Origin: a virus
Lineage: Duplodnaviria; Caudoviricetes
Direction: 5' to 3' (one strand)
Virus record (IMG/VR): IMGVR_UViG_3300022719_000123
Span: 1-43,313 of that record
Length of the DNA stretch: 43,313 nucleotides
Positions within the stretch are counted from its first letter, which is position 1. Each line of letters starts with the position of its first letter. The notes below the pieces were generated by a model. It did not search any database. It saw only the letters and a program-made list of their open reading frames with translations, and was not told the DNA's origin. Both the position numbers and the translations under genes were made by a program. Of this stretch, positions 1 through 43,312 are shown piece by piece.

Positions 1-12
1 GTATTTCCAATA
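1..12. repeat. Terminal overlap with 43302..43313 (circular assembly junction)
   Basis: gtatttccaata (1-12) versus gtatttcccata (43302-43313): 11/12 identical, and the join restores the portal reading frame. Confidence 0.8.
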
Positions 13-299
13 TTATCTGGATTGGAAGAAACTATTTCAAAAAAATCTTCGTTTTGAAAAATAATGCCAGAGAGTTTATCCGCAGCTCGGCGAACCATTT
101 TAGAGAGTATGTGAACAAAAGGAGTGGATTGCCAGTCTTCTTTCTCAGACCAGGATTGTTTTCCTTGGAAAAGATTCATGGCCAAAGACCAGCGGTCTCT
201 ATCAGGTTGAGTTTCTAACTCTGTTTTTTGCCACATTTCTGTGACAAATTTACAGATATAGTCTTCTCGCTCGGCCTTATTGCTAAACTCTTCTGGCAT
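1..299 (-). CDS. Portal protein, N-terminal part (continues across the circular junction into 43312..41414)
   Basis: Hand translation from ATG at 299 gives MPEEFSNKAEREDYICKFVTEMWQK...SSNPDNIGN, open to the window edge. It joins in frame with ...GNTELARIFEK at the other end. Confidence 0.85.
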   Translation of the reverse strand, partial: MPEEFSNKAEREDYICKFVTEMWQKTELETQPDRDRWSLAMNLFQGKQSWSEKEDWQSTPFVHILSKMVRRAADKLSGIIFQNEDFFEIVSSNPDNIGN

Positions 300-305
300 T
301 GTGAC

Positions 306-554
306 TTATTTAATTCGCTGATCAGTAGACATACGAGACTTCGGAATGTCTGACATATCTCTGGTGCTCATAGTGGTATCAGTATGATCCTGCGTCTTTC
401 CATCTGCTACGCGAGTAGTTCCTGGGGGTGAACTCATTTTAATACTTGAGCTGCCGCTTCCTTTCATTCTCGCATCCGAATCTTTAGGAGCATCGTTGAG
501 AAACCCCTTCTCTAACTTTCTTCCGTCAATTCGTCCTGATTGTTTAAATGGCAT
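306..554 (-). CDS. Small basic hypothetical protein between TerL and portal
   Basis: 82-aa ORF that tightly fills the gap, co-oriented, with GGAGG upstream. Confidence 0.7.
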   Translation of the reverse strand: MPFKQSGRIDGRKLEKGFLNDAPKDSDARMKGSGSSSIKMSSPPGTTRVADGKTQDHTDTTMSTRDMSDIPKSRMSTDQRIK

Positions 555-556
555 AA

Positions 557-2317
557 TTACCTCCCTTCAAGTTCTCGTTTCCGTTGATAACCGGTTAAAT
601 CTATATCAAATGATTCATTAGTAGACCATCCTCCCTTTTTGGGCCTATTATGCCGAACAGACCTTGATGAGCGAAACCCTATTTTTTTAGAGCGCTTTTT
701 GTTGGAACTCTGCTCAAAAGAAAAGCTCTGCATTTTATCGAACATGGCGAAAATCATTCGCACAATATAATCCGCCCTATTCGTCTGAAATCTCATACAA
801 TCCAGCACCCAGAATTGATCCTGAAAGCGAGTTATGGCTAAAATCGCGGTATGGTCTGAATAGGTCTCATCAGTGAAGGCGGGGTCTACGGCAATATGAA
901 CCATCGGAAATATGTCGTCTTTCTGGCCTTTGCAGAGTTCAATCCCATATGTCAATGCGTCGAGACAATCGTCTGAGCCTTTATCAAATGTGCGAAGCTC
1001 TTGGCCCAGATTATCATCCCGATCCATAAGATCGCGTCTCACACAAAGCTGATTCTGATACACAGCCGGTTGAACCACACTACGGATTCTATCATGCTTG
1101 TTTTTCTTTTGGGTGGTAAGCTTATCAATGGCTATCTTCCTTCCCTCCTGCCTCATCATCACATCAATGGTAGACATTAGCGCCGCTGATTGTGATTCAC
1201 ACTCAACACCAACTCTAGCGACCGGGCCTAACTCAAATGGTGGAGGAAGGGTGGGGAACGTTTGAATCTTTTGAATATCAAACTGGATGTCATCATCCAT
1301 AACTGGTTCGTTATAATACAGTGCTGAGAACCTATGTCCGTTCGCTTTCTTAAGAGCAACTAAACTTTCTTCTGTCTCCCCGTATCCATACTCATTACCA
1401 AGATCGTCATACCATTTTCGATGAGGCGCAACGAGAACCTGTTTCTTCTTAGCATGATCATACGTAGTGACTCCTACCTTAAAAATCCTAAGCCTTCCTT
1501 GCTTACTTTGAAGCTCACCACTTTCAATCTTTCCGCAGTAATCGTCATACGTCCATCTCGTGCAGCAACCACGAAGTGGCGCGCCTAAGTCAATAGTGTT
1601 GCACATCTCGCCAAAAAATTTCTCAACACGCCTACGGTGCGTTGCAGAATCCGCCGTCTCCTCATTAAGAAGATCATCAAAAATAAATCCACCATCAAAG
1701 TGTGCACCAGTAATATTTCCCCTAACACCGTATGCAGAAAGGGAAGGAATCTTTCGCTCCCTCGTTCCAAACGTATCGTCACCAGAGGCAACATCTAAAT
1801 AATAACCATCCTCACCCCATTTAGAACTAGGAACACAGTCAGGAAAACAACGCTTAAACGCACCATTCCCACTAACAATAGCAGCCGATGTGCGAATCAT
1901 TCTCGCCGCACCATCACCAGTAGCATTAGCTACACCAACTCGTTTATAAGGATTCTTAGCCAACCACCAGGCAGGCATTGGCTCGGTAATCATTCCGCTC
2001 TTGCCAGCTCCACGCCAGACTAAAGCAAGACCATCATCACCACTCTCTTCCAAATCTTCTAAAAACTTACAAAGCTCCTCCCCGTGAAACCAGGGATCCA
2101 TCCAACGATAATCAATTACTATCCTAAGATATGTCCAATAACTCGTCGAGGCTAGCATCCCCAGAGCCTTCCACAGACCCCCCGGATCCTCCGCCTCCAC
2201 CGTCTCCAGCAACTGAAGCTGCTCCATTAGCCTTCGCTCGCACGGTGCTACCCTTTGCTTTGCGTTTTCGCCCTCGACCCTTGCCCTTATTGGAGGGATT
2301 ATCTTTGGTTCCGGCAT
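557..2317 (-). CDS. terL: Terminase large subunit (ATPase plus RNase H-like nuclease with permuted motif order)
   Basis: Walker A WRGAGKS, Walker B FIFDD, CTRW coupling motif, nuclease motifs VGVE, DDCLDA and AVDPA; sits upstream of the portal. Confidence 0.93.
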   Translation of the reverse strand: MPEPKIIPPIRARVEGENAKQRVAPCERRLMEQLQLLETVEAEDPGGLWKALGMLASTSYWTYLRIVIDYRWMDPWFHGEELCKFLEDLEESGDDGLALVWRGAGKSGMITEPMPAWWLAKNPYKRVGVANATGDGAARMIRTSAAIVSGNGAFKRCFPDCVPSSKWGEDGYYLDVASGDDTFGTRERKIPSLSAYGVRGNITGAHFDGGFIFDDLLNEETADSATHRRRVEKFFGEMCNTIDLGAPLRGCCTRWTYDDYCGKIESGELQSKQGRLRIFKVGVTTYDHAKKKQVLVAPHRKWYDDLGNEYGYGETEESLVALKKANGHRFSALYYNEPVMDDDIQFDIQKIQTFPTLPPPFELGPVARVGVECESQSAALMSTIDVMMRQEGRKIAIDKLTTQKKNKHDRIRSVVQPAVYQNQLCVRRDLMDRDDNLGQELRTFDKGSDDCLDALTYGIELCKGQKDDIFPMVHIAVDPAFTDETYSDHTAILAITRFQDQFWVLDCMRFQTNRADYIVRMIFAMFDKMQSFSFEQSSNKKRSKKIGFRSSRSVRHNRPKKGGWSTNESFDIDLTGYQRKRELEGR

Positions 2318-2549
2318 TCGACACCTTCACTTCCTTCTTCAATTCAGGACCATCCAACTTAATCTCAGCACCCACCTTACCAACATACGTCATAAAACAA
2401 TGATACAAATCACCACCAACCTGATACTCCTCAACATAACCTTCAATCTCCTCCAACGAAGACGGCCTAGAAAACTGATTATTGAACTTTATCCGTAGAC
2501 TGAACAGATCCTCGGAGATACTTTTCGACAAGCTCTTTTCCTCTTCCAT
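2124..2549 (-). CDS. Hypothetical protein overlapping the TerS 3' end and the TerL 5' end
   Basis: ATG at 2549 (MEEEKSLSK) preceded by GGTGGAGAGTA; covers the otherwise empty 2318-2478 gap. Confidence 0.5.
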   Translation of the reverse strand: MEEEKSLSKSISEDLFSLRIKFNNQFSRPSSLEEIEGYVEEYQVGGDLYHCFMTYVGKVGAEIKLDGPELKKEVKVSNAGTKDNPSNKGKGRGRKRKAKGSTVRAKANGAASVAGDGGGGGSGGSVEGSGDASLDELLDIS

Positions 2550-2922
2550 TACTCTCCACCTTAACACTATCATTACTAACCTGAGTCTTACTACGAGGAA
2601 CCCAGCGATCAGTCCGACGCTCAAGTATCGTCTTAATCGTCACTATCTGACCAGACTCAGCCTTGCGCTCACCCAACGCAAATAAACTTAAAAGATGCTC
2701 CAATCGACAGAAAAAACTTTCCTCAGCAGTACGAAAATCCTCATAATACAAATTACGAAGATCAAACAAATCACCCAAACTTATGTCTAAACTCTCAGCA
2801 CAACCAACAGCATCGTAAAACTGCTCCGCTACCATAAAATATTCAACCGCCCGATCGCGAAGCTCTTCCCTTTCCTCCCTTGGTAACTCCTGTATACGAC
2901 TCCTCAATGCCCAAAACATCAT
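2479..2922 (-). CDS. Probable terminase small subunit
   Basis: 147-aa helical protein upstream of TerL, with an HTH-like N-terminal half and a TerS-like IKTILERRTDRW segment. Position plus loose motif only. Confidence 0.6.
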   Translation of the reverse strand: MMFWALRSRIQELPREEREELRDRAVEYFMVAEQFYDAVGCAESLDISLGDLFDLRNLYYEDFRTAEESFFCRLEHLLSLFALGERKAESGQIVTIKTILERRTDRWVPRSKTQVSNDSVKVESNGRGKELVEKYLRGSVQSTDKVQ

Positions 2923-3527: not shown

Positions 3528-3995
3528 ATGAAACCCGCCCAGAGAGAACACAGAATTCCTACCAGAAAAGTCTCCTCACCAAGAGCAAAAAATATCTCAT
3601 GCTCAATATTCACAAACTTCAATCCAAAAAAAATAAAATACCAATACTCCCTAATTACACCCCAAGTCGGTCGAAGAACAACAGAAAACTCCCCATGGTA
3701 CCCAAAAACAGCCCTAAACGCACGAGAAGCTATAGAACTATGGCTCACACTCACTCACGGAATAAAAGAACTACTACTCACCGACATAGATAAAGAACAA
3801 ACACTGCCTCCAAATTACCCCATATTCAAAAAATTCGGACTCCCCCTCATAAACTCCACCAATATTCAAAAACACGATACTTCCACATTCTCACCAAAAG
3901 AATCAAAAAAAATTAACTCAACCTTCGAAAAACAACACCCAAATCATAAAACTCAACCAGAAGACTCCATTATCACTATTCAACGATATAATTAG
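3528..3995 (+). CDS. Hypothetical protein in the G-depleted zone
   Basis: 155-aa ORF. Almost all of its few G residues are at codon positions 1-2, which is a coding periodicity signature. Confidence 0.65.
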   Translation: MKPAQREHRIPTRKVSSPRAKNISCSIFTNFNPKKIKYQYSLITPQVGRRTTENSPWYPKTALNAREAIELWLTLTHGIKELLLTDIDKEQTLPPNYPIFKKFGLPLINSTNIQKHDTSTFSPKESKKINSTFEKQHPNHKTQPEDSIITIQRYN

Positions 3996-4028
3996 TCGGG
4001 ATTAACACCGCTTTTTTTGCGCGAGTCC

Positions 4029-4120
4029 GGGGGGGGGAATAATATATACAGGCGGGGGGCGGGGCCATCGCTCGAAACCCACCCGTATGGGGAGCGAATC
4101 ATCCCCTATACCCCCCTATA
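4029..4120. other. G-run/C-run element at the compositional switch (candidate pac/terminus or origin region)
   Basis: G9 (4029-4037), G6 (4054-4059), G4 (4061-4064), then cccctata-cccccctata (4103-4120); lies between the divergent late and early modules. Confidence 0.4.
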
Positions 4121-4253
4121 CTAGTACTAAATGAAATGTCTGATAAGAAGACTTATCGGTCAATTTGGCGCGCTACGCAGAATATCGATATCTCTACTCC
4201 GCGCTGCTCTGATGTTGTGTGTATTATCTACGAAATGACTGTTGTTGTCCGAG

Positions 4254-4270
4254 TTGGCATGAGTTTTGCA
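4254..4270 (+). promoter_or_regulatory. Sigma54 (-24/-12) promoter-like site, rightward
   Basis: TTGGCATGAGTTTTGCA against consensus YTGGCACGRNNNTTGCW, with exact GG-N10-GC spacing; intergenic. Confidence 0.6.
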
Positions 4271-4577
4271 AAGAAGGGGGGACTCTCAACACATGAACGA
4301 CTCTTATCCGTAATACTGCATATCTCACTGTACTACACTATATATATCTATAAACGATCTGCGTTTGTGTATAACTAACGTTAACATGACTAGAAGAGTC
4401 AGAAAAGTACATAGATACTAGTATGTATGATCGCTCGCATTGTCTAGCTTAGCATACTCTACCAAGTTTTTTACAATAGCTGAAAAAGTTATTGAGTGAT
4501 TGTGGGTACTTACGCTGATTGCTTGTCGTGTATTGAGATAAATTGAGTACGTTTGCGATTATCTGTCATCATACCCA

Positions 4578-4607
4578 TTGACAGTAACCCCGCCATAGAG
4601 TTATAGT
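4578..4607 (+). promoter_or_regulatory. Sigma70 promoter for the early gene cluster
   Basis: TTGACA-N18-TATAGT, followed by an AAGGAG RBS and the ATG at 4647. Confidence 0.7.
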
Positions 4608-4646
4608 GAGAATGTGAACAACAATAACAAAAAGGAGTAATACGTT

Positions 4647-4862
4647 ATGAGATATCACTATTTCTTACATAAATCAGACAATTTTGGTGGTCATACTTGG
4701 ATTGATGCATATGCCGCGCGCGGTTGTCTCGCAGCGTATGCCGTGTGTTTGGATAATCACGATTGTAATCCTACTTTGCGGGTCGATTATTTGTTTAGCG
4801 TTGATGAGCTATTGAGTGATGAGCGCGTAGAGCAACTTGAGTCGATAATGCAACAAAAATGA
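4647..4862 (+). CDS. Early hypothetical protein
   Basis: 71-aa ORF with an AAGGAG RBS, first after the promoter. Confidence 0.75.
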   Translation: MRYHYFLHKSDNFGGHTWIDAYAARGCLAAYAVCLDNHDCNPTLRVDYLFSVDELLSDERVEQLESIMQQK

Positions 4863-4875
4863 GGAGAGAAGAAAC

Positions 4876-8446: not shown

Positions 8447-8473
8447 ATAAGCGTAAGTTACGGAGATAGCAAT

Positions 8474-8656
8474 ATGAAATGGGCGACGTTAATTTGTGCT
8501 GTGATATTAGTGAGTTGGTATTTAGCGACTCAAACGGTCGAGTCTCGCTGTGACGCTAATCGAGGCGCTCAGTGTTTGATGGACGAGGATTGTGGTTTTG
8601 GGTGTGATTGTATGAATGTTGGTGGTGTGTGGGGCACTGATCGTGAGTGTAGGTGA
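8474..8656 (+). CDS. Secreted or membrane-anchored six-cysteine miniprotein
   Basis: GGAG RBS, hydrophobic N-terminus, then C-x7-C-x5-C-x3-C-x-C-x12-C. Confidence 0.7.
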   Translation: MKWATLICAVILVSWYLATQTVESRCDANRGAQCLMDEDCGFGCDCMNVGGVWGTDRECR

Positions 8657-8657
8657 T

Positions 8658-8858
8658 ATGGAAGCCCCTGGAATCTTTATCATTAAGCTGAAACGAATTG
8701 AACCATCACCTGTGTTTGTTGTGATAGCTGATGGTACTGGTGATGCGCTTAGTATGTGTCGGGTTGAGGATGAGCGTTTTTTGTATGAGTCGGTGGATGT
8801 TTATCAGATCGGCTGGGCCCCAATTGGCGATGATGTACGTGTAGTGCTGCGGTTGTGA
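8658..8858 (+). CDS. Hypothetical protein
   Basis: Start reassigned to ATG 8658 (MEAPGIFII) after AGGTGAT, directly after the previous stop. Confidence 0.6.
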   Translation: MEAPGIFIIKLKRIEPSPVFVVIADGTGDALSMCRVEDERFLYESVDVYQIGWAPIGDDVRVVLRL

Positions 8859-8887
8859 TGTAATATAACCCGGTGCCTAGATGGATC

Positions 8888-9060
8888 TGTCCCAAAACCC
8901 TATTGCAAGAATCGTGCCAACTTATGGTGAGCCTCTGCAAAGGGCGGGACATGAGCATCAGGGGCGGGTATGAACTACGATCCCGTTTGCCTGAGTGGAC
9001 CTGCCGCTAGTGCGCTAAACCTTGATGTTATCTCCCAAACGCTTACTAGCGAGGCTACTC
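8888..9060 (+). ncRNA. Candidate structured RNA (or ssDNA) element of three consecutive hairpins
   Basis: Stems TGTCCC/GGGACA + CCCT/AGGG + TTGCA/TGCAA; TCAGG/CCTGA + GGCGGG/CCCGTT; GAGTGG/CTACTC + CCT/AGG + CGCTAGT/ACTAGCG. G-U wobbles favour the plus strand. Confidence 0.5.
8904..8920 (-). promoter_or_regulatory. Sigma54 (-24/-12) promoter, leftward
   Basis: The minus strand reads TTGGCACGATTCTTGCA, a full match to YTGGCACGRNNNTTGCW. Confidence 0.7.
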
Positions 9061-9182
9061 AACCATATGACCTGTCATTTTTAACCATGAAATTTTTGCG
9101 TGGCTGAAATCATTGAAGATATTAGTTGCATCACGTCTAAACCGCACGTTTTGCAAGCCTATTTGTCTACGATAAACCCGCT

Positions 9183-9231
9183 GCGTATAATTATTATACA
9201 CACCAAACCACAGTGTATAACTATTATACAC
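9183..9231. promoter_or_regulatory. Two tandem palindromic operator-like sites, 30 bp apart
   Basis: GCGTATAA-TTA-TTATACAC (9183-9201) and GTGTATAA-CTA-TTATACAC (9213-9231). Confidence 0.65.
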
Positions 9232-9346
9232 AGTTATCTAGTTGTTATTTAAAAGTAATAGCGGAACAAAAAAAGCTCAAGCTCTCGAAACGATCTCCCG
9301 TATCACTCCATCGTAGTTATATCTATTAACTAACCAACTGGAGGTT

Positions 9347-9568
9347 ATGAAAATGGAATACGACATTATAAAAGTGGTTGTATGTGGTTTAGGCGCTGCG
9401 TTGTTTGCGATAGCCGTGTCTGGGTGTGGTGTGACGAATGGGAGTACGACCCTAGGAACCACTGGTTTCTTACAAGAAGTCAACGCCAGGGCAAAATACG
9501 GCGCTCCTATGGACCATCATACGGAGGCTGACAAGCGGAAGCTCGAAGAACAGCTACGGAGGTACTGA
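9347..9568 (+). CDS. Small lipoprotein
   Basis: GGAGG RBS; hydrophobic leader ending in the lipobox-like VSGC. Confidence 0.7.
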   Translation: MKMEYDIIKVVVCGLGAALFAIAVSGCGVTNGSTTLGTTGFLQEVNARAKYGAPMDHHTEADKRKLEEQLRRY

Positions 9569-9717
9569 TGAGCGAGGCGCTAGGAAAGACCATGTTTTGT
9601 GTGATGATATTTATGTCGGGAATGGCAGCAACGATACTACTAGAGAAGTTAATGCTGCTACCTGCGACATGTCAAGTCACAAGCGAAATATTAACTGAGT
9701 ATGGATATAGGAAATAA
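9568..9717 (+). CDS. Small membrane protein (49 aa, not in the ORF track)
   Basis: MSEALGKTMFCVMIFMSGMAATILLEKLMLLP...; TGATG overlap and GGAGG upstream. Confidence 0.6.
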   Translation: MSEALGKTMFCVMIFMSGMAATILLEKLMLLPATCQVTSEILTEYGYRK

Positions 9718-9721
9718 AACG

Positions 9722-9823
9722 ATGCAGCTAGTAATAATTGATAGATATGAGAGCGGTAGTTATATCATGACAACGTACGATCGGTATGGGAGAGTAAAAA
9801 CGGTACGGGGTGTGATACATTAG
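9722..9823 (+). CDS. Tiny hypothetical protein (33 aa)
   Basis: MQLVIIDRYESGSYIMTTYDRYGRVKTVRGVIH; fills the gap up to the terminator. Confidence 0.4.
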   Translation: MQLVIIDRYESGSYIMTTYDRYGRVKTVRGVIH

Positions 9824-9831
9824 AGTCATTA

Positions 9832-9865
9832 GCCGCTCGTCTATTCGTATTCGAGCGGCGTTTTT
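9832..9865 (+). terminator. Intrinsic terminator-like hairpin at a convergent gene junction
   Basis: GCCGCTCG-N12-CGAGCGGC followed by GTTTTT. Confidence 0.55.
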
Positions 9866-10110
9866 ACTCTCTTCCTCATTACACTCGGCTCCTCATCCAA
9901 CTGCTCACAGCACCAATTAAAAGAAAAAACCCCCCAACTATCACTATTAATCCAGCGCCACGAGCTGCGCCTGTACTCATCCTCTAGTGCGAGATCGAGC
10001 AGGGCTCGTTTGAGCATTGCGATTATTAACTGCTGCTCCGGTGTTTTGTCTGAGTAATATGCATGTTGTTTGGTGCGTATTTCGCGTTTCATACAAGCAC
10101 TCACACTCAC
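9841..10110 (-). CDS. Hypothetical protein downstream of the lysozyme
   Basis: 89 aa with PEQQLIIAML..RALLD and FSFNWCCEQLD motifs; abuts the lysozyme stop. Confidence 0.7.
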   Translation of the reverse strand: MSVSACMKREIRTKQHAYYSDKTPEQQLIIAMLKRALLDLALEDEYRRSSWRWINSDSWGVFSFNWCCEQLDEEPSVMRKRVKTPLEYE

Positions 10111-12360: not shown

Positions 12361-12578
12361 TGGACGCTGGGTTCGTAATCTGTAGTAAGTGCGGGAGGGG
12401 GAGCATTCCGTTACGTTTTACTGCGATCAATGCCACACAGGATGAAATAGAAATGGTTCCCGCTGTTGTGTTTAAGGCATGTCAGGCAAAAAAGTGTGGC
12501 CACGTTATGACCGAGAAAGAGGTCAAAGAGCGCATTAATGCATGGTTTAGTGTTGAAGTAAGGGAGGAAAAGAAATAA
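12360..12578 (+). CDS. Small zinc-ribbon-like protein
   Basis: CSKC ... CQAKKC cysteine pairs; TAATG coupling at both ends. Confidence 0.7.
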   Translation: MDAGFVICSKCGRGSIPLRFTAINATQDEIEMVPAVVFKACQAKKCGHVMTEKEVKERINAWFSVEVREEKK

Positions 12579-13558
12579 TGCAAGTATTAATTGAAAACTG
12601 TCAAGAGAATAAAGAGCAGTGGCTAAAGGCGCGGGAAGGGAAAATCACTGCGACGATGGCGTATGATGCTGCTGATATTGACGAGGGTAGCTCGCCGATG
12701 AATGCTTGGCTTGGTCTACGTGGTGAGCGGGAACCTTTCCACGGCAACGAGTCAACCGAGATAGGCTTGTTATTGGAGGATGATGTAGCCGAGTTATTTT
12801 GCAGGCGCTACATCGAAGACAATCCAGGGGCGGACGTTAAGCTAAATAAATTTGATGTGTTTGGAGTACACGACAAATACGATTTTCTCGGAAGCTCTTT
12901 TGACTGGGAGGTTATAATCAATGGGGAACGTAGTTTACTTGAAACAAAAACGACAAGAGCGAGATTCTTGCCTCAGTGGGAAGATGGAAATGTTCCGAAC
13001 CGATACCGAGCACAGTTGCTGCACGAACTCGCCGTTGACGGAGCAGCGAGACGAGCTTACATCGCCGCACTGGTTTTCGAGCCGACACTCAAATACTCAT
13101 ACATTGACCGGGAAGAAGAGCTTGTGGATGAACTGGTACAACGAGAACTGCGATTGTATGAGCTGTTCAAGCAAGGAACTCCACCGGACCTCAAGAACCC
13201 AACGCAAGAGCATCTTAAGGCGCTTTTTTGGGAGACTGATGAATCGGAAATAATATTGGAGCCGAGGCACCAGGAGATAATCGCATCATACAAATCAGCC
13301 TGTGACCAAGAGAAGCAAGCAAAAGAGCGAAAGGCTAAGTGCCAAGCTGACTTACTGCAATTATGCGGTAAAGCAAAACGTGCTCGGTGTGGCGATTACA
13401 AAGTGAGCATTGTACGAACCGAGTATCAAAACTTCGACACGGCGCGGTGGAAAAAAGAAGACCCAACGCAGTATGAATCGCTGAGAGGGCAGTACGGCAA
13501 GCCTGTGAGTTATATGTATGCGAGAATTAGCGAAAACAATAAGGAGAATAAACGATGA
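12578..13558 (+). CDS. YqaJ-like (lambda exonuclease family) recombination nuclease
   Basis: EQWLKAREGKITAT, G...LE, SSFD...LLETKT and Y.AQL motifs; RecT lies downstream. Confidence 0.9.
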   Translation: MQVLIENCQENKEQWLKAREGKITATMAYDAADIDEGSSPMNAWLGLRGEREPFHGNESTEIGLLLEDDVAELFCRRYIEDNPGADVKLNKFDVFGVHDKYDFLGSSFDWEVIINGERSLLETKTTRARFLPQWEDGNVPNRYRAQLLHELAVDGAARRAYIAALVFEPTLKYSYIDREEELVDELVQRELRLYELFKQGTPPDLKNPTQEHLKALFWETDESEIILEPRHQEIIASYKSACDQEKQAKERKAKCQADLLQLCGKAKRARCGDYKVSIVRTEYQNFDTARWKKEDPTQYESLRGQYGKPVSYMYARISENNKENKR

Positions 13559-13842
13559 ACAAGAAACCTGTTTTAATCACCACAGAGTATAGAGGTGTGT
13601 TTTTCGGGTATGTTGAGGATGATTCAAATTTACCCCAGCAAATCACATTAACAGACGCGCGTATATGTGTGTCATGGAGCCAAGCAACCAAAGGCGTATT
13701 GGGTTTGGCCGATAAAGGGCCGAATGACGATTGTCGCATTGGCGGTAGTGTTCCGAAACTTACGGTGTGGAAGATTACATCTGTTACAGACTGCACGCCA
13801 GAAGCAACAGAGAAGTGGGAGCAAGGGCCATGGAAATATTAG
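13555..13842 (+). CDS. DUF6948-like phage protein
   Basis: VLITTEYRGVFFG...LTDAR..W...GLA..GP pattern, followed by a Gly-rich gene as usual for this family (from recall). Confidence 0.7.
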   Translation: MNKKPVLITTEYRGVFFGYVEDDSNLPQQITLTDARICVSWSQATKGVLGLADKGPNDDCRIGGSVPKLTVWKITSVTDCTPEATEKWEQGPWKY

Positions 13843-14339
13843 CAACACAAGAGCTGATATGGCGAGCACAGATGTTTGGTGCATGTGTAGAGGGGCTGCC
13901 GGATGTTGGTAATAACCTCGATTTTAGACAGCTTCTGTGGCTGTCTGGCACAAAGTGGAATGAGCTAGAAAATCTTGTTGTGCCTGCGTGGGCGCAAGCT
14001 GGCCGTGGCCGTGGCTATGGCGGTGGCGATGGCAGTGGCTTTGGCGATGGCAGTGGCAGTGGCTATGGCAGTGGCTATGGCGATGGCAGTGGCTTTGGCG
14101 ATGGCAGTGGCCGTGGCCGTGGCCGTGGCTATATTGGCTTTGGCTTTGGCGATGGCAGTGGCAGTGGCTATGGCAGTGGCTATGGCGATGGCAGTGGCTT
14201 TGGCGATGGCAGTGGCAGTGGCTATGGCCGTGGCTATGGCAGTGGCTATGGCGATGGCAGTGGCAGTGGCGATGGCAGTGGCTTTGGGCTAGAACTAAAA
14301 AACTGGCCAGGAATTAGCGAGGAGAAAAACAATGAGTAA
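13830..14339 (+). CDS. Glycine-rich (GDGSGSGYG) repeat protein
   Basis: Likely start ATG 13830 (MEILATQEL); long G-x repeat tract. Confidence 0.7.
   Translation: MEILATQELIWRAQMFGACVEGLPDVGNNLDFRQLLWLSGTKWNELENLVVPAWAQAGRGRGYGGGDGSGFGDGSGSGYGSGYGDGSGFGDGSGRGRGRGYIGFGFGDGSGSGYGSGYGDGSGFGDGSGSGYGRGYGSGYGDGSGSGDGSGFGLELKNWPGISEEKNNE
14000..14288 (+). repeat. Hexamer minisatellite (ggcNNt)n
   Basis: ggcagt/ggctat/ggcgat/ggcttt/ggccgt units. Confidence 0.95.
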
Positions 14340-15255
14340 ATTTAAATCAAGCAAGAGCACGAAAGATATGATGCAGAGCAAGCAAGCGCCAACTAGTTCA
14401 GCGGGGCAGTTGTTGGCTTCGGTGAATAACGGACTGCTGGAAATGAAACCGAGACTAGAGGCGGTACTACCAGATGGCATCACGGCTGATAGGTTTATGA
14501 CCACCGCTTACTACCACGTTAGGGCTAACCCGCATCTGTGGAACGTGGAGAAGCAGAGTTTGTTTCTGTCTTTCTTGCAAGCTGCACAACAAGGGTTAGA
14601 TTTTGCAGTGCCAAACGAGGCGCATATCGTGCCGTTCAAGGGTAAGGCCACGCTGATTAGAGGCTACAAGGGAGACTTAAAGAACGCTAGAAGGAACCCT
14701 GATATCACCTACATTGATGCTAAAGCTATCTATGAAGCAGATGTGTATGACGTGGAACTAGGAGACACTCCACGGGTGACACACAAGCCACCAAAGTTTG
14801 GTAAGGATAGAGGACCGCAAATAGGTTTCTACGCTGTAGCAAAGGATAGAAACGGGAACGTGTATCACGAGGAAATGACAAACGAGCAAGTACACAACCA
14901 CGCCAAGCAGTACACCAAAGCAGCGGAGAAAGGGCCATTTTCAGAAATAATTAAAAAAGGACCAGAGGGTAAGAACTGGGAAGCATACGGATTAAAGACT
15001 GTGATTCATAGAATCTGTACCAGGAAACTAGACCTCAACACCTACTTCGGCCAATCGCTAATGCGCGAGTATGCACAAGACGACAAGCCAACGGCCCCGA
15101 TGCAGATAGACGATGCCGCGTTCAGACCATCCGACCCAGTGTTTGAGGCTGAGATTGATGAGGGCTTTGATCCGACCCAAGAACAGACACTACCGAAGGT
15201 AGAGATAACAGACGAGGACGAGCAGAAACTAACAAAACAACAGGGGATGCTATGA
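14332..15255 (+). CDS. recT: RecT-family single-strand annealing protein
   Basis: SLFLSFLQAAQQGL, EAHIVPFKG, GYKG, GFYAVA and LKTVI motifs. Confidence 0.92.
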   Translation: MSKFKSSKSTKDMMQSKQAPTSSAGQLLASVNNGLLEMKPRLEAVLPDGITADRFMTTAYYHVRANPHLWNVEKQSLFLSFLQAAQQGLDFAVPNEAHIVPFKGKATLIRGYKGDLKNARRNPDITYIDAKAIYEADVYDVELGDTPRVTHKPPKFGKDRGPQIGFYAVAKDRNGNVYHEEMTNEQVHNHAKQYTKAAEKGPFSEIIKKGPEGKNWEAYGLKTVIHRICTRKLDLNTYFGQSLMREYAQDDKPTAPMQIDDAAFRPSDPVFEAEIDEGFDPTQEQTLPKVEITDEDEQKLTKQQGML

Positions 15256-15509
15256 ATAATTACAGTAAATTGCCGGAGCATATGCAGCCGGCTGCAATGA
15301 GGTACATTGAGCATGGTGTTAAACCAGGTGATTTTATGTTTGCAGTGTTAACTAACAATCTCGTGGCTGCATTCAGTTATGCCGATGCGGCAAATAAACG
15401 CTATATATATAAATGGGTGGAGTGGTTGATGGCCGACTGCCCTGAGGATGCGTGGGGTAGTAAAGATAAAGTGTTTACGTACATGCGTAAAACACAAAAC
15501 AAAAACTAG
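15252..15509 (+). CDS. Hypothetical protein
   Basis: 85 aa; PEHM..RYIEHG..PGDF..AVL.N motif seen in phage hypotheticals; ATGA overlap. Confidence 0.75.
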   Translation: MNNYSKLPEHMQPAAMRYIEHGVKPGDFMFAVLTNNLVAAFSYADAANKRYIYKWVEWLMADCPEDAWGSKDKVFTYMRKTQNKN

Positions 15510-15518
15510 GAGACTGAA

Positions 15519-15710
15519 ATGCCAAAACTTAATTTGTCAGTGCTTAACTGGTACTGGGTATGGGTTGAGCGATACATGGACGATAACGATATCGGACTAG
15601 CCGAGTTGTTTAGGGAAGCTATAACACCGAAGCTATGTGCCGAGTATCCAGAGTTTCGGGAAATAATACGTGCAGAAAAGAAGAAACAATCTGCGTTAGA
15701 TCAAGCGTAA
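15519..15710 (+). CDS. Small hypothetical protein, possibly ribbon-helix-helix-like
   Basis: 63 aa with an AGGAG RBS; beta-like start followed by helices (LAELFREAI). Confidence 0.6.
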   Translation: MPKLNLSVLNWYWVWVERYMDDNDIGLAELFREAITPKLCAEYPEFREIIRAEKKKQSALDQA

Positions 15711-16063
15711 TGCGTAATCAAGTCATTGATATCGTGCCTGTGCCATACACACGGATGACACAACGCGATCAATGGAAGCCTCGACACAAGAGGTATAAAA
15801 AATACAAGGACGATTTACGTTGGCTGTGGGACGGTGCCTTCCCGTGCGAGATGACATTTCGATTCTGTCTGCCTATGCCGAACAGTTGGAGCGAGAAGAG
15901 AAAAAGAGAGAGCGAGGGTAAGCCACATCAGTCGAGACCGGATTTAGATAATTTAGTGAAGGGTGTGTTAGATGCGTTATTAGATGAAGATAGTTTGGTG
16001 TGGAGATTCTCCGCTGAAAAAATCTGGGGTTATGAAGGTCGAATTGAAATATACTATGAATAA
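15710..16063 (+). CDS. rusA: RusA-family Holliday junction resolvase
   Basis: PMPNSWS, HQSRPDLDNLVKGVLDAL and EDSLV motifs; start reassigned to ATG 15710. Confidence 0.88.
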   Translation: MRNQVIDIVPVPYTRMTQRDQWKPRHKRYKKYKDDLRWLWDGAFPCEMTFRFCLPMPNSWSEKRKRESEGKPHQSRPDLDNLVKGVLDALLDEDSLVWRFSAEKIWGYEGRIEIYYE

Positions 16064-41152: not shown

Positions 41153-41417
41153 TATGTTTCTCCTTTTTTATTTGTTCTATTTCCTGAAGTCGTCGTGCCG
41201 GTCCATCGACTAGTCCATCCAGAATAAAGTCAATAATACTTATTGCTCCTTGTGCGTATCGTATCGAAGCCTCTTCTGAATCTCGTGACTTAAGCGTGAC
41301 CAAATATCCGTCCCGCTGCGCTTTTAAGGGCTCGATAAAAAATTCTCTAAACCTTTCTTCTCCTTTAAGTGCTGTGAAGTAATTCGCGCGTGCTAAGAAA
41401 TCTTGTTCAACGTTCAC
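41040..41417 (-). CDS. Small helical protein between portal and scaffold
   Basis: IRYAQG motif; the 3' part overlaps the scaffold start. Confidence 0.65.
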   Translation of the reverse strand: MNVEQDFLARANYFTALKGEERFREFFIEPLKAQRDGYLVTLKSRDSEEASIRYAQGAISIIDFILDGLVDGPARRLQEIEQIKKEKHNERRTTNTGRRERESGTSSRRSWEGRAETNNPIPGRF

Positions 41418-43312
41418 CTACCTGCTCCTTGTCCTGCTCCATTTACTATTGGGGGCGTTTGTCCTGCTCCATTTTGCCCAATGGGCTCTGGTGGAAATCC
41501 TAAGATAGCTCTAATATCATCTGGGATTTCTGGCGGGCCTATTCCTAACTCCTGCATAGCCTGAAGAGTTAAAAGAATATGCTGCACGGCGGCGTCGGTA
41601 GGAGTTTGTCTGAGAACTTCGTAGTGAACAGGAAGATGTAACTCGTGTCTTTCGTCTGGAAGAATAGAAACCATCTTTCCGGTTCGAAGAAGTGCGTTTT
41701 CTTCTCGTGCAGTGTCTTGTGGATTATTTTGTATCAACCACCTGTTTGGCTCGAAGCCGTGTTGTTCTACCATATCGGCTACAGCTTTGTTCCAGTCAAT
41801 TTTAGATTGTGCGCTTTCGGGCATACGGCTGAGTTTATCTAATAGTTCATTAGAGTTTGCTAGACTTTGGTGCCGCTCAATTCGTTCTCGAAAACCCTTA
41901 ACCCGAATTTTGAAGTTTCGTTTAATCTCGTTGTATCGCTCAATTTTTGGAATGTTGCTCACAAGTTGGAATTCGGAGCTTGTAATAATACCCTGAGTAT
42001 GTAGGTCTTCAAGAGAGCCTGTTTCGAATCCAAACTGCAAGGTTATGTTCATCACCTTCTGAATAATCGGAACGATAAAGTTTTCATCTAGTTCTCTTCC
42101 GAGGGCAAGAAGACTCTCATCAGAGCGATCCACGTTTGCATTAACTTCCGATGCGGTAATCCTAGCTCTACTCGCCTGATTTGCTGACGTGACATCTACG
42201 CCAGCGGCTGAGAAAGCTTGTTGCTCTAAGCGATTAAGTGTTTGAAAGAGAATGGTTCCTACGTTCGTATCGAACTGTAGTTGGGAGAAAACTTCTTTTG
42301 CAGACTTTCCAAATGTTTCGATTCGTTGGTTTGGAAATAGCCCTTCTTCAATGTCCTCTTTATTATGAATAGCATTCATATCAACCACAAACGGCGGGTA
42401 GCTTGCTAACTTCATCATATCAATAAAGTTACTCCACAAGTCATTCGTAAGTAGTTGTTGGTCGATTGCGTTATCGGCAATTCCTTCTCCCGCTGCTTTA
42501 AAAGGAGAGCGGGAAAAACGAGCGGTTACATGAGGAGGAAGTTGATCCCAAAAACCGATGCGGCGGTCTTTAAGAAGAGTTTTGCCGGTCGCAACAATAA
42601 AGTGGCGGTTCTCCTCTATAACTCGCCCGTCTTTCCCTAAGAGTGGTCCATAATATTCTAGTAATTCAATATCAGGGGTGTGTGCGCTTTGCTGTGGAAG
42701 CTGATCGCGCGTAACTATTTTCTGAGACTCGTATGTAGATATAAGACTTTGAGAAGTAAGGCTGACATGATGGCCTTTCTTAAGAAGGTCTTCTCGTTTT
42801 GATTTATCAAGTGCGTGTGACTCAAACAGTGGTTCTAGCTCATAGAATTTCTTTGTAATTCGTTCAATTCTATACCCAGAGTTTTCAACTCTTGTAGCAT
42901 TCGGCTCCCAGGCATAATTGCGCGGGTCAACTACTTCACCCTCAATGCCCACCTCTAATCTACGCTTCGGTCCAAGCTGTCTTTCTAGTCTAATTCGCTG
43001 TGGCTCTCCCTCTCCGGTGAAAGCTTTAATATCGTCCAGAATAAGATTCATTATCTCATCCGGGTCAGTGGGAATGTTTTGTTGAACGTCTTTAGGAAGT
43101 TTCTTTTTGTCCTTCTCCTCGTCTCGTTGAATCTCCTTTGTAATAACTTCCCCGGTCCAGACAATTCGAGGAATGACGTTTAGTTTCATAATTCCTAGTC
43201 CGGTAATGCCTCCTGAAATAAAGAAGTCATAAGCAAGGCTAGGGAGTTTCATCATCCCAAGATGATACCGAACCACCTTTTCAAAGATTCGTGCTAACTC
43301 AGTATTTCCCAT
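41414..43312 (-). CDS. Portal protein (P22-like), main part
   Basis: 632 aa open to the window edge; GLGIMK, VDPRN, IELLEYYG, GEGI and ITASEV motifs; synteny TerL-portal-scaffold-capsid. Confidence 0.88.
   Translation of the reverse strand: MGNTELARIFEKVVRYHLGMMKLPSLAYDFFISGGITGLGIMKLNVIPRIVWTGEVITKEIQRDEEKDKKKLPKDVQQNIPTDPDEIMNLILDDIKAFTGEGEPQRIRLERQLGPKRRLEVGIEGEVVDPRNYAWEPNATRVENSGYRIERITKKFYELEPLFESHALDKSKREDLLKKGHHVSLTSQSLISTYESQKIVTRDQLPQQSAHTPDIELLEYYGPLLGKDGRVIEENRHFIVATGKTLLKDRRIGFWDQLPPHVTARFSRSPFKAAGEGIADNAIDQQLLTNDLWSNFIDMMKLASYPPFVVDMNAIHNKEDIEEGLFPNQRIETFGKSAKEVFSQLQFDTNVGTILFQTLNRLEQQAFSAAGVDVTSANQASRARITASEVNANVDRSDESLLALGRELDENFIVPIIQKVMNITLQFGFETGSLEDLHTQGIITSSEFQLVSNIPKIERYNEIKRNFKIRVKGFRERIERHQSLANSNELLDKLSRMPESAQSKIDWNKAVADMVEQHGFEPNRWLIQNNPQDTAREENALLRTGKMVSILPDERHELHLPVHYEVLRQTPTDAAVQHILLTLQAMQELGIGPPEIPDDIRAILGFPPEPIGQNGAGQTPPIVNGAGQGAGR

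Follow-up and report, generated by a model that had tools for sequence, protein, structure and literature searches.

No protein of tailed phages and herpesviruses is better conserved than the large terminase (TerL). How its nuclease stays inactive while DNA is translocated and becomes active at the ends has been described as a long-standing question. In the available part of PMC13595956, the linker between ATPase and nuclease and the C-terminal tail are proposed as couplers, the linker signaling from the ATPase to the nuclease and the C-terminus binding the portal. For the G20c terminase, cleavage has been reported to require residues D294, D347, and D429 (main text of PMC5389553, as far as available).

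The closest described systems are the PHROG 38 terminases, which are PsiM2-like or T7-like (PhiV-1 gp19 [8DGC]; NF033889; Salinivibrio phage CW02). They have the same ATPase as the protein described here and the same set of nuclease motifs (DPA, DxTA, hhE, K..RI, and DDxxDA), but they keep the N-terminal half of the nuclease (N-half) before its C-terminal half (C-half).

A large terminase with swapped nuclease halves

The window, which is the whole stretch of 43,313 bp analyzed here, encodes one large terminase, P0001 (557..2317, on the minus strand like all terminase features given below); a second terL was not found elsewhere in the genome. The ORF of 586 aa is unbroken and devoid of internal stop codons. 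In profile scans, P0001 matches phrog_38 (E 1.9e-46). The match to the T7-type terminase equivalog NF033889 (56.8 bits, E 1.7e-15) stays under the curated cut-off of 150 bits, so that P0001 is not assigned to this equivalog, and a Pfam scan revealed no match to the HK97-type terminase families PF03354 and PF20441. P0001 has both parts which characterize a TerL protein: an N-terminal ASCE ATPase with Walker A, Walker B, and coupling motif, and a C-terminal RNase H/RuvC-like nuclease with an acidic triad (D478/E372/D453) that is conserved in 51 of 51 sequences. The ATPase domain (aa ~55-339, 1301..2155) shows structure matches with Z about 17 to the ATPase domains of T4 gp17 and P74-26. We take RGAGKS (1997-2014) to be its Walker A motif, FIFDD (1673-1687) to be Walker B, and TRW (1553-1561) to be the coupling motif.

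In the canonical RNase H-like fold, the elements are arranged along the chain as beta1-beta2-beta3-alphaA-beta4-alpha-beta5...last helix. P0001 deviates from this order, with beta4 through the last helix preceding beta1-beta3 and alphaA. The motif YYNEP is found at 1304-1318, and the linker (aa 340-365, 1223..1300) is homologous to the canonical linker according to hhalign, but it enters beta4. The canonical C-half is placed first (aa 366-462, 932..1222) and comprises beta4 with E372 (VGVE, 1202-1213), the K407-x-x-R-I helix (KHDRI, 1085-1099), and the D450-x-x-D453 helix (DDCLDA, 956-973). A new loop of ~10 aa (902..931) connects the formerly C-terminal helix with what was the first strand. 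The canonical N-half is placed second (aa 473-530, 728..901), with beta1 carrying D478 (HIAVDPA, 878-898), D488-x-T-A (DHTA, 845-856), beta2, beta3, and alphaA; FWVLD is at 800-814. The protein ends with a basic tail (aa 531-586, 560..727) which is largely disordered. The motifs on which a first-pass annotation of the window had based its proposal of swapped halves are thus all present at the positions it gave, within one intact ORF.

That proposal had predicted that separate searches with the two halves would match the C-half of the model and then its N-half, which is what half-by-half HMM scans returned. While the ATPase part (aa 36-359) maps to positions 266-541 of phrog_38, the first nuclease half (aa ~366-466) maps to 607-706 (E 2.7e-9) and the second (aa ~474-527) to 550-603 (E 3.1e-5). 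Pfam agrees, though weakly and below cut-off, with Terminase_6C positions 1-51 aligned to aa 475-527 and PF22530 positions 52-108 to aa 366-424. When 51 permuted were compared with 48 canonical sequences by hhalign, two non-collinear blocks were obtained which jointly span the canonical nuclease core: aa 330-461 align to template positions 1-189 with ~60 columns skipped (P 99.7, E 1.2e-25), and aa 466-535 align to positions 30-99 (P 98.1, E 9.5e-14). As judged from these alignments, a block of ~60 residues (beta1-beta2-beta3-alphaA) is shifted from before beta4 to behind the DDxxD helix, and nothing is lost.

Two homologous blocks in reversed order which cover the whole domain, with neither loss nor duplication, are the hallmark of a circular permutant. 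The first-pass annotation had called the protein a natural circular permutation, and this is borne out by the HMM order, the profile-profile alignment, 70 homologues, and a single-domain model of high confidence which does not align collinearly with solved nucleases. The loop between the halves is short and varies little, the spacing from D453 to D478 being 24-29 aa in 50 homologues. The permutation is confined to the RNase H core; the ATPase linker and the basic C-terminal tail are located as in canonical proteins.

Homologues, origin, and integrity of the assembly

A protein search with P0001 retrieved 30 matches, one of them from the record of the window itself. All 27 sequences in an alignment of these proteins (A1), which leaves out P0002, the intein-bearing P0016, the fragment P0030, and the distant P0031, have the swapped order. 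P0031 in turn led to 15 more proteins which form a second subclade (subclade B) with the same breakpoints, and contig scans added further loci in both subclades as well as many canonical relatives. Classification of 160 rows by half-domain HMMs resulted in 72 permuted rows (70 distinct sequences), 64 canonical rows, and 24 unclassified ones, which are mostly distant or truncated; the family size of 70 is a lower bound. Homologues with the same order, for which the first-pass annotation had suggested a search, are thus at hand, and the swapped layout is kept down to about 23% identity. Several member contigs have a length of 40-46 kb.

Trees were computed from the ATPase only. An IQ-TREE analysis of 29 permuted and 27 canonical rows, subsampled from 101, shows a single change of state with branch support of 100/99. 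A FastTree analysis of 52 permuted and 49 canonical rows, from which three intein-bearing canonical rows had been dropped and in which L019, L109, L123, and L141 were labeled canonical by hand from their match positions, has the same split (0.998). The outgroups were gathered with a query from the permuted clade and are not exhaustive, so that both trees may lack canonical or intermediate relatives that are closer. We consider one origin of the permutation likely, with the root on the canonical side because solved terminases are canonical.

The swap would go back to a single event in the ancestor from which a clade of podovirus-like phages of ~40-46 kb descended. Most simply, the nuclease-coding segment may have been duplicated in tandem, after which the N-half of the first copy and the C-half of the second were lost. 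The order of C-half, N-half, and tail, together with the retained linker and tail, fits such a duplication followed by deletions. Proteins with two copies of a half, as expected for duplication intermediates, were found in neither of the two sets of proteins matched by half-domain profiles (0/142 and 0/136).

Additional searches delimited the family. Among 50,697 annotated phage genomes, P0001 and P0031 obtained only ATPase matches, none covered to 80%, and thus no cultured member was found. A GTDB genome scan with the subclade-B alignment returned one locus, which is ATPase-only and unclassified, so that neither a prophage nor a host was found there. P0031 alone retrieved no viral loci, and a second profile search with A1 added just one protein, which is canonical. 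Two scans of IMG/VR DNA with a narrow pattern (DDxxDA followed by DPA[FY]) gave 41 loci, including three terminases, all on already-known contigs, and did not reveal an independent second permutation. A full-length match for the permuted layout was found neither in BFVD, where the best TM was 0.53, nor in the PDB.

The first-pass annotation knew of no described example, and our literature search, with most subscription papers and all supplements outside its scope, likewise found no paper on a permuted terminase nuclease. In the available text, the term 'permut' refers to DNA methylases in PMC7824862 and to a reference title on P22 DNA in PMC7617512, while it is absent from the available parts of the RNase H superfamily survey PMC3985635 and of PMC13595956. 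P0001 is a real and conserved topological variant of a known enzyme which, as far as searched, is previously undescribed.

A mis-assembly of the contig, which the first-pass annotation had named as a concern to be addressed by mapping reads across 900-950, is ruled out by the 70 distinct homologues from ENA, Logan, JGI, NCBI, and IMG/VR which share the breakpoints. Logan contigs of run X1 cover positions 19-1041 and 1038-2009 with zero differences at a depth of about 5 (2010-2138 is uncovered), and each of the junctions (~902-931 and ~1223-1300) is intact within one of these contigs. Run X1 is possibly the source sample and thus not independent, and contigs rather than raw reads were compared; the Logan runs X2 and X3 have no match to the window. 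The low depth in the sole run which carries the sequence is what could speak for a local mis-assembly, but with the intact frame, the lack of a repeat pair flanking the swapped block, and above all the shared breakpoints, we regard its probability as practically nil.

Predicted fold and catalytic residues

The full-length AF2 model (pLDDT 85, pTM 0.71) has a largely disordered tail. When modeled in isolation, aa 348-535 form a single compact domain (pLDDT 91, pTM 0.89) with the element order beta4, alpha, beta5, alpha, ..., DD helix, beta1, beta2, beta3, alphaA. Foldseek with this domain had no terminase nuclease among the matches listed. In an order-dependent comparison with solved terminase nucleases (VIA-align), 10 of 11 terminase rows cover one half only, from model residue 1 to 116-122, the best being 8DGC (Z 6.3, rmsd 3.4, 120 aligned); the exception is P22 (4DKW), which spans 1-187 with Z 4.3. 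Matches over nearly the full length are to Ham1/Maf/CinA, anticodon-binding domains of aaRS, TolB-N, and others (Z 4-7.3; all fold matches are below Z 8). For most of them we assume the SCOP sheet order 2-1-3-4-5 with strand 4 antiparallel, which would be the RNase H order 3-2-1-4-5 renumbered after the permutation. Given the modest Z values, the matches to Ham1/Maf/CinA-type folds would indicate a common arrangement and not kinship. This arrangement suggests that the strands of the shifted block return to their sheet, and D478, E372, and D453 are predicted to form one active site.

We consider it quite probable that this TerL with swapped halves folds into the usual sheet and has likely retained its function as a two-metal packaging nuclease, that the swap has a single origin, and that the rewiring was probably near-neutral. 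The beta1-beta3 block would pack back beside beta4, and D478/E372/D453, which correspond by motif to D294/D347/D429 of G20c, would make up the equivalent site.

Among 51 permuted sequences, E372, K407, D450, D453, and D478 are invariant, and D488 is conserved in 48; their canonical counterparts are conserved in 43-48 of 48 sequences. Pairs for dN/dS analysis came from subclade B, except for one from subclade A, whose sequences are nearly identical and differ by too few changes. Pair L074/L075 is informative; two others are nearly identical and two are saturated. For L074/L075, dN/dS is 0.025 in the C-half (36.8 synonymous, 5.2 nonsynonymous), 0 in the N-half (6 synonymous, 0 nonsynonymous), and 0.13 in the ATPase, which points to purifying selection on both nuclease halves in this subclade-B pair. 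P0016 and P0055 carry an intein of ~284 aa within the DDxxD motif (between DD-C and LD), as expected of a needed site. From these data, the permuted nuclease is probably active. The alternative is that it is dead or purely structural and that another enzyme of the phage or the host cuts the DNA. A RusA-like resolvase and a RecE-like exonuclease are indeed encoded in the genome, but the catalytic acidic residues are as conserved as in the canonical relatives, and with the signs of selection and the position of the intein, a dead nuclease is highly improbable. In the canonical relatives L110, L138, and L145, long inserts are found in the ATPase instead.

The closest solved structure is that of the PhiV-1 terminase bound to Avs3 (8DGC), which raises the question of whether the rearrangement is an escape from terminase-sensing defenses (Avs1-3, Upx). 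According to the available text of PMC13601566, Avs3 recognizes residues of the active site, and some nuclease domains can elicit a KpAvs2 response, but for EcAvs2 and Upx the ATPase domain, which is conventional in P0001, is a sufficient trigger. Immune escape is an unlikely cause of the permutation because EcAvs2 and Upx respond in this way, and the permutation is predicted to leave the active site as it was; we thus allow it only a very slight chance.

Genome context and tethering of the nuclease

The terL gene is embedded in a packaging module with portal, scaffold, capsid, and a putative small terminase (TerS) nearby. In subclade-A loci the order is probable TerS, a small overlapping gene, terL, a basic ORF of ~80 aa, and portal, followed by scaffold and capsid in loci reaching that far. 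In the window, the probable TerS (147 aa, 2479..2922, minus strand) has an HTH-like start and is syntenic in 6/6 subclade-A loci examined. It has no family match; its LExR..W motif, together with its position, we take as pointing to TerS. In most subclade-B loci (L073-L079), there is no TerS-like gene directly upstream of terL, and tail-like or metalloprotease-like genes are found there.

A small gene with a low-complexity basic tail (2124..2573, minus strand) overlaps the 5' end of terL in the -1 frame. The overlap extends over 45-64 codons in all six subclade-A loci compared (window, L002, L003, L025, L027, and L028), and open runs of this length start at just 0.2-9% of positions in that frame. 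Either the overlap of the two genes is conserved as such, or it hints at a product linked to frameshifting. Between terL and the portal gene, the window has a basic low-complexity ORF of 82 aa (306..554, minus strand). Corresponding ORFs of 50-89 aa, which are basic and rich in Gly/Ser/Lys, are present in 11/11 permuted loci, with sequence conservation within subclade B.

The portal gene is divided between the ends of the window: its N-terminal piece (3..299, minus strand; the window opened inside the gene) aligns with four related portals over their residues ~4-100, whereas for the piece 43312-41417 the alignment starts at ~95-99. The latter belongs to the remaining 632 aa (41414..43312, minus strand; PF23899 SU10_portal, E 9.6e-18). 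A short near-repeat is found at the two ends of the window. Since the window ends inside the portal gene, the 43,313-bp record, classed as 'linear, 42% complete', probably represents a complete genome whose circle was opened there. A PHROG scan of the window revealed internal-virion and head-closure matches, typical of podoviruses and suggestive of that morphology, and no integrase. A RecE-like exonuclease, a RecT-like annealing protein, and a RusA-like resolvase are encoded at 12578-16063 on the plus strand. The stretches 3760-4870 and 8470-10100 have no ORF of at least 100 aa except for the plus-strand ORF 3528-3995; they include the strand switch between late and early modules.

The first-pass annotation had further argued that the permutation changes how the nuclease is tethered to the motor ATPase. 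This holds for the connectivity, as the linker now feeds directly into the strand which bears the second metal ligand, but the change is probably small in space: the linker Asn and the first acidic residue are 36 aa apart in P0001 and 35 aa apart in canonical L088. In the RNase H topology, beta1 and beta4 are adjacent, parallel strands. With this adjacency and the nearly equal spacing, the tether would shift by about one strand, which is probably near-neutral. In terminases, the C-terminal helix runs antiparallel to beta1 (available part of PMC3985635); the end of this last helix should thus be near the start of beta1, so that a 10-residue loop can join them. Two features of the fold would make the swap tolerable: the last helix ends close to where beta1 begins, and beta1 and beta4 have neighboring starts.

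The basic tail is likely the portal-docking segment, by analogy with other terminases. Its likeness between canonical and subclade-B proteins is compositional and does not by itself imply homology: the K+R fraction is 0.24 in short canonical tails and 0.26 in subclade B, both basic, and an aromatic residue ends the tail in 38/39 canonical and 21/21 subclade-B proteins, compared to 4/31 in subclade A. Subclade-A tails, including that of P0001, are longer than those of subclade B and the short canonical ones.

The main rival to near-neutral rewiring is altered regulation that was selected for. The linker would pull on the strand with E372, the mobile metal-B ligand, and the tail would leave from alphaA, resulting in a different switch, possibly with participation of the small basic gene. 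A role of the linker in relaying the ATPase state to the nuclease is described in PMC13595956, and G20c D347, the equivalent of E372, is reported to move during catalysis (PMC5389553; both as far as available). The layout is fixed across sequences which are just ~23% identical, and the 11/11 permuted loci with a small ORF ahead of the portal gene compare with about 46/52 canonical loci in which terL is followed straight by a long ORF. However, the linker spacing is almost the same, fixation in one lineage requires no advantage, and the presence of the small ORF cannot be told apart from common descent, as there was one event. We thus consider selected regulation rather unlikely. A broader version, according to which terminase nucleases have been permuted more than once and the coupling of the linker to the metal-B strand together with the moved tail is a new switch here, perhaps with the small gene, is possible but doubtful.

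Near-neutral rewiring with retained catalysis remains our preferred reading. A whole lineage has changed the entry strand of the linker and the exit helix of the tail and has kept the catalytic residues, which shows that this permutation can be accommodated by the RNase H-fold core of an essential enzyme. Permuted terL genes have a weak Pfam nuclease call or none (none for most matches), and they are missed by order-dependent fold searches.

Among known terminases, PhiV-1 gp19 (8DGC) is the best structural match to full-length P0001 (Z 22), and the best cultured matches are restricted to the ATPase, with 24-28% identity. For the canonical sister terminases from IMG/VR (e.g., L082, L088, L095, and L125), the profiles align to the permuted ones block by block, the linker motif likewise precedes the nuclease, and the portals are related, but they have the canonical order, and the portal gene usually follows directly after terL. 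The permuted clade and its canonical sister clade thus represent a natural matched pair for separating coupling by covalent connectivity from coupling by surface contacts. With G20c (5M1F), P74-26 (5TGE), SPP1 G2P (2WC9), T4/RB49 gp17, D6E, E217, and HCMV UL89, P0001 is predicted to share the same RNase H/RuvC-type two-metal site.
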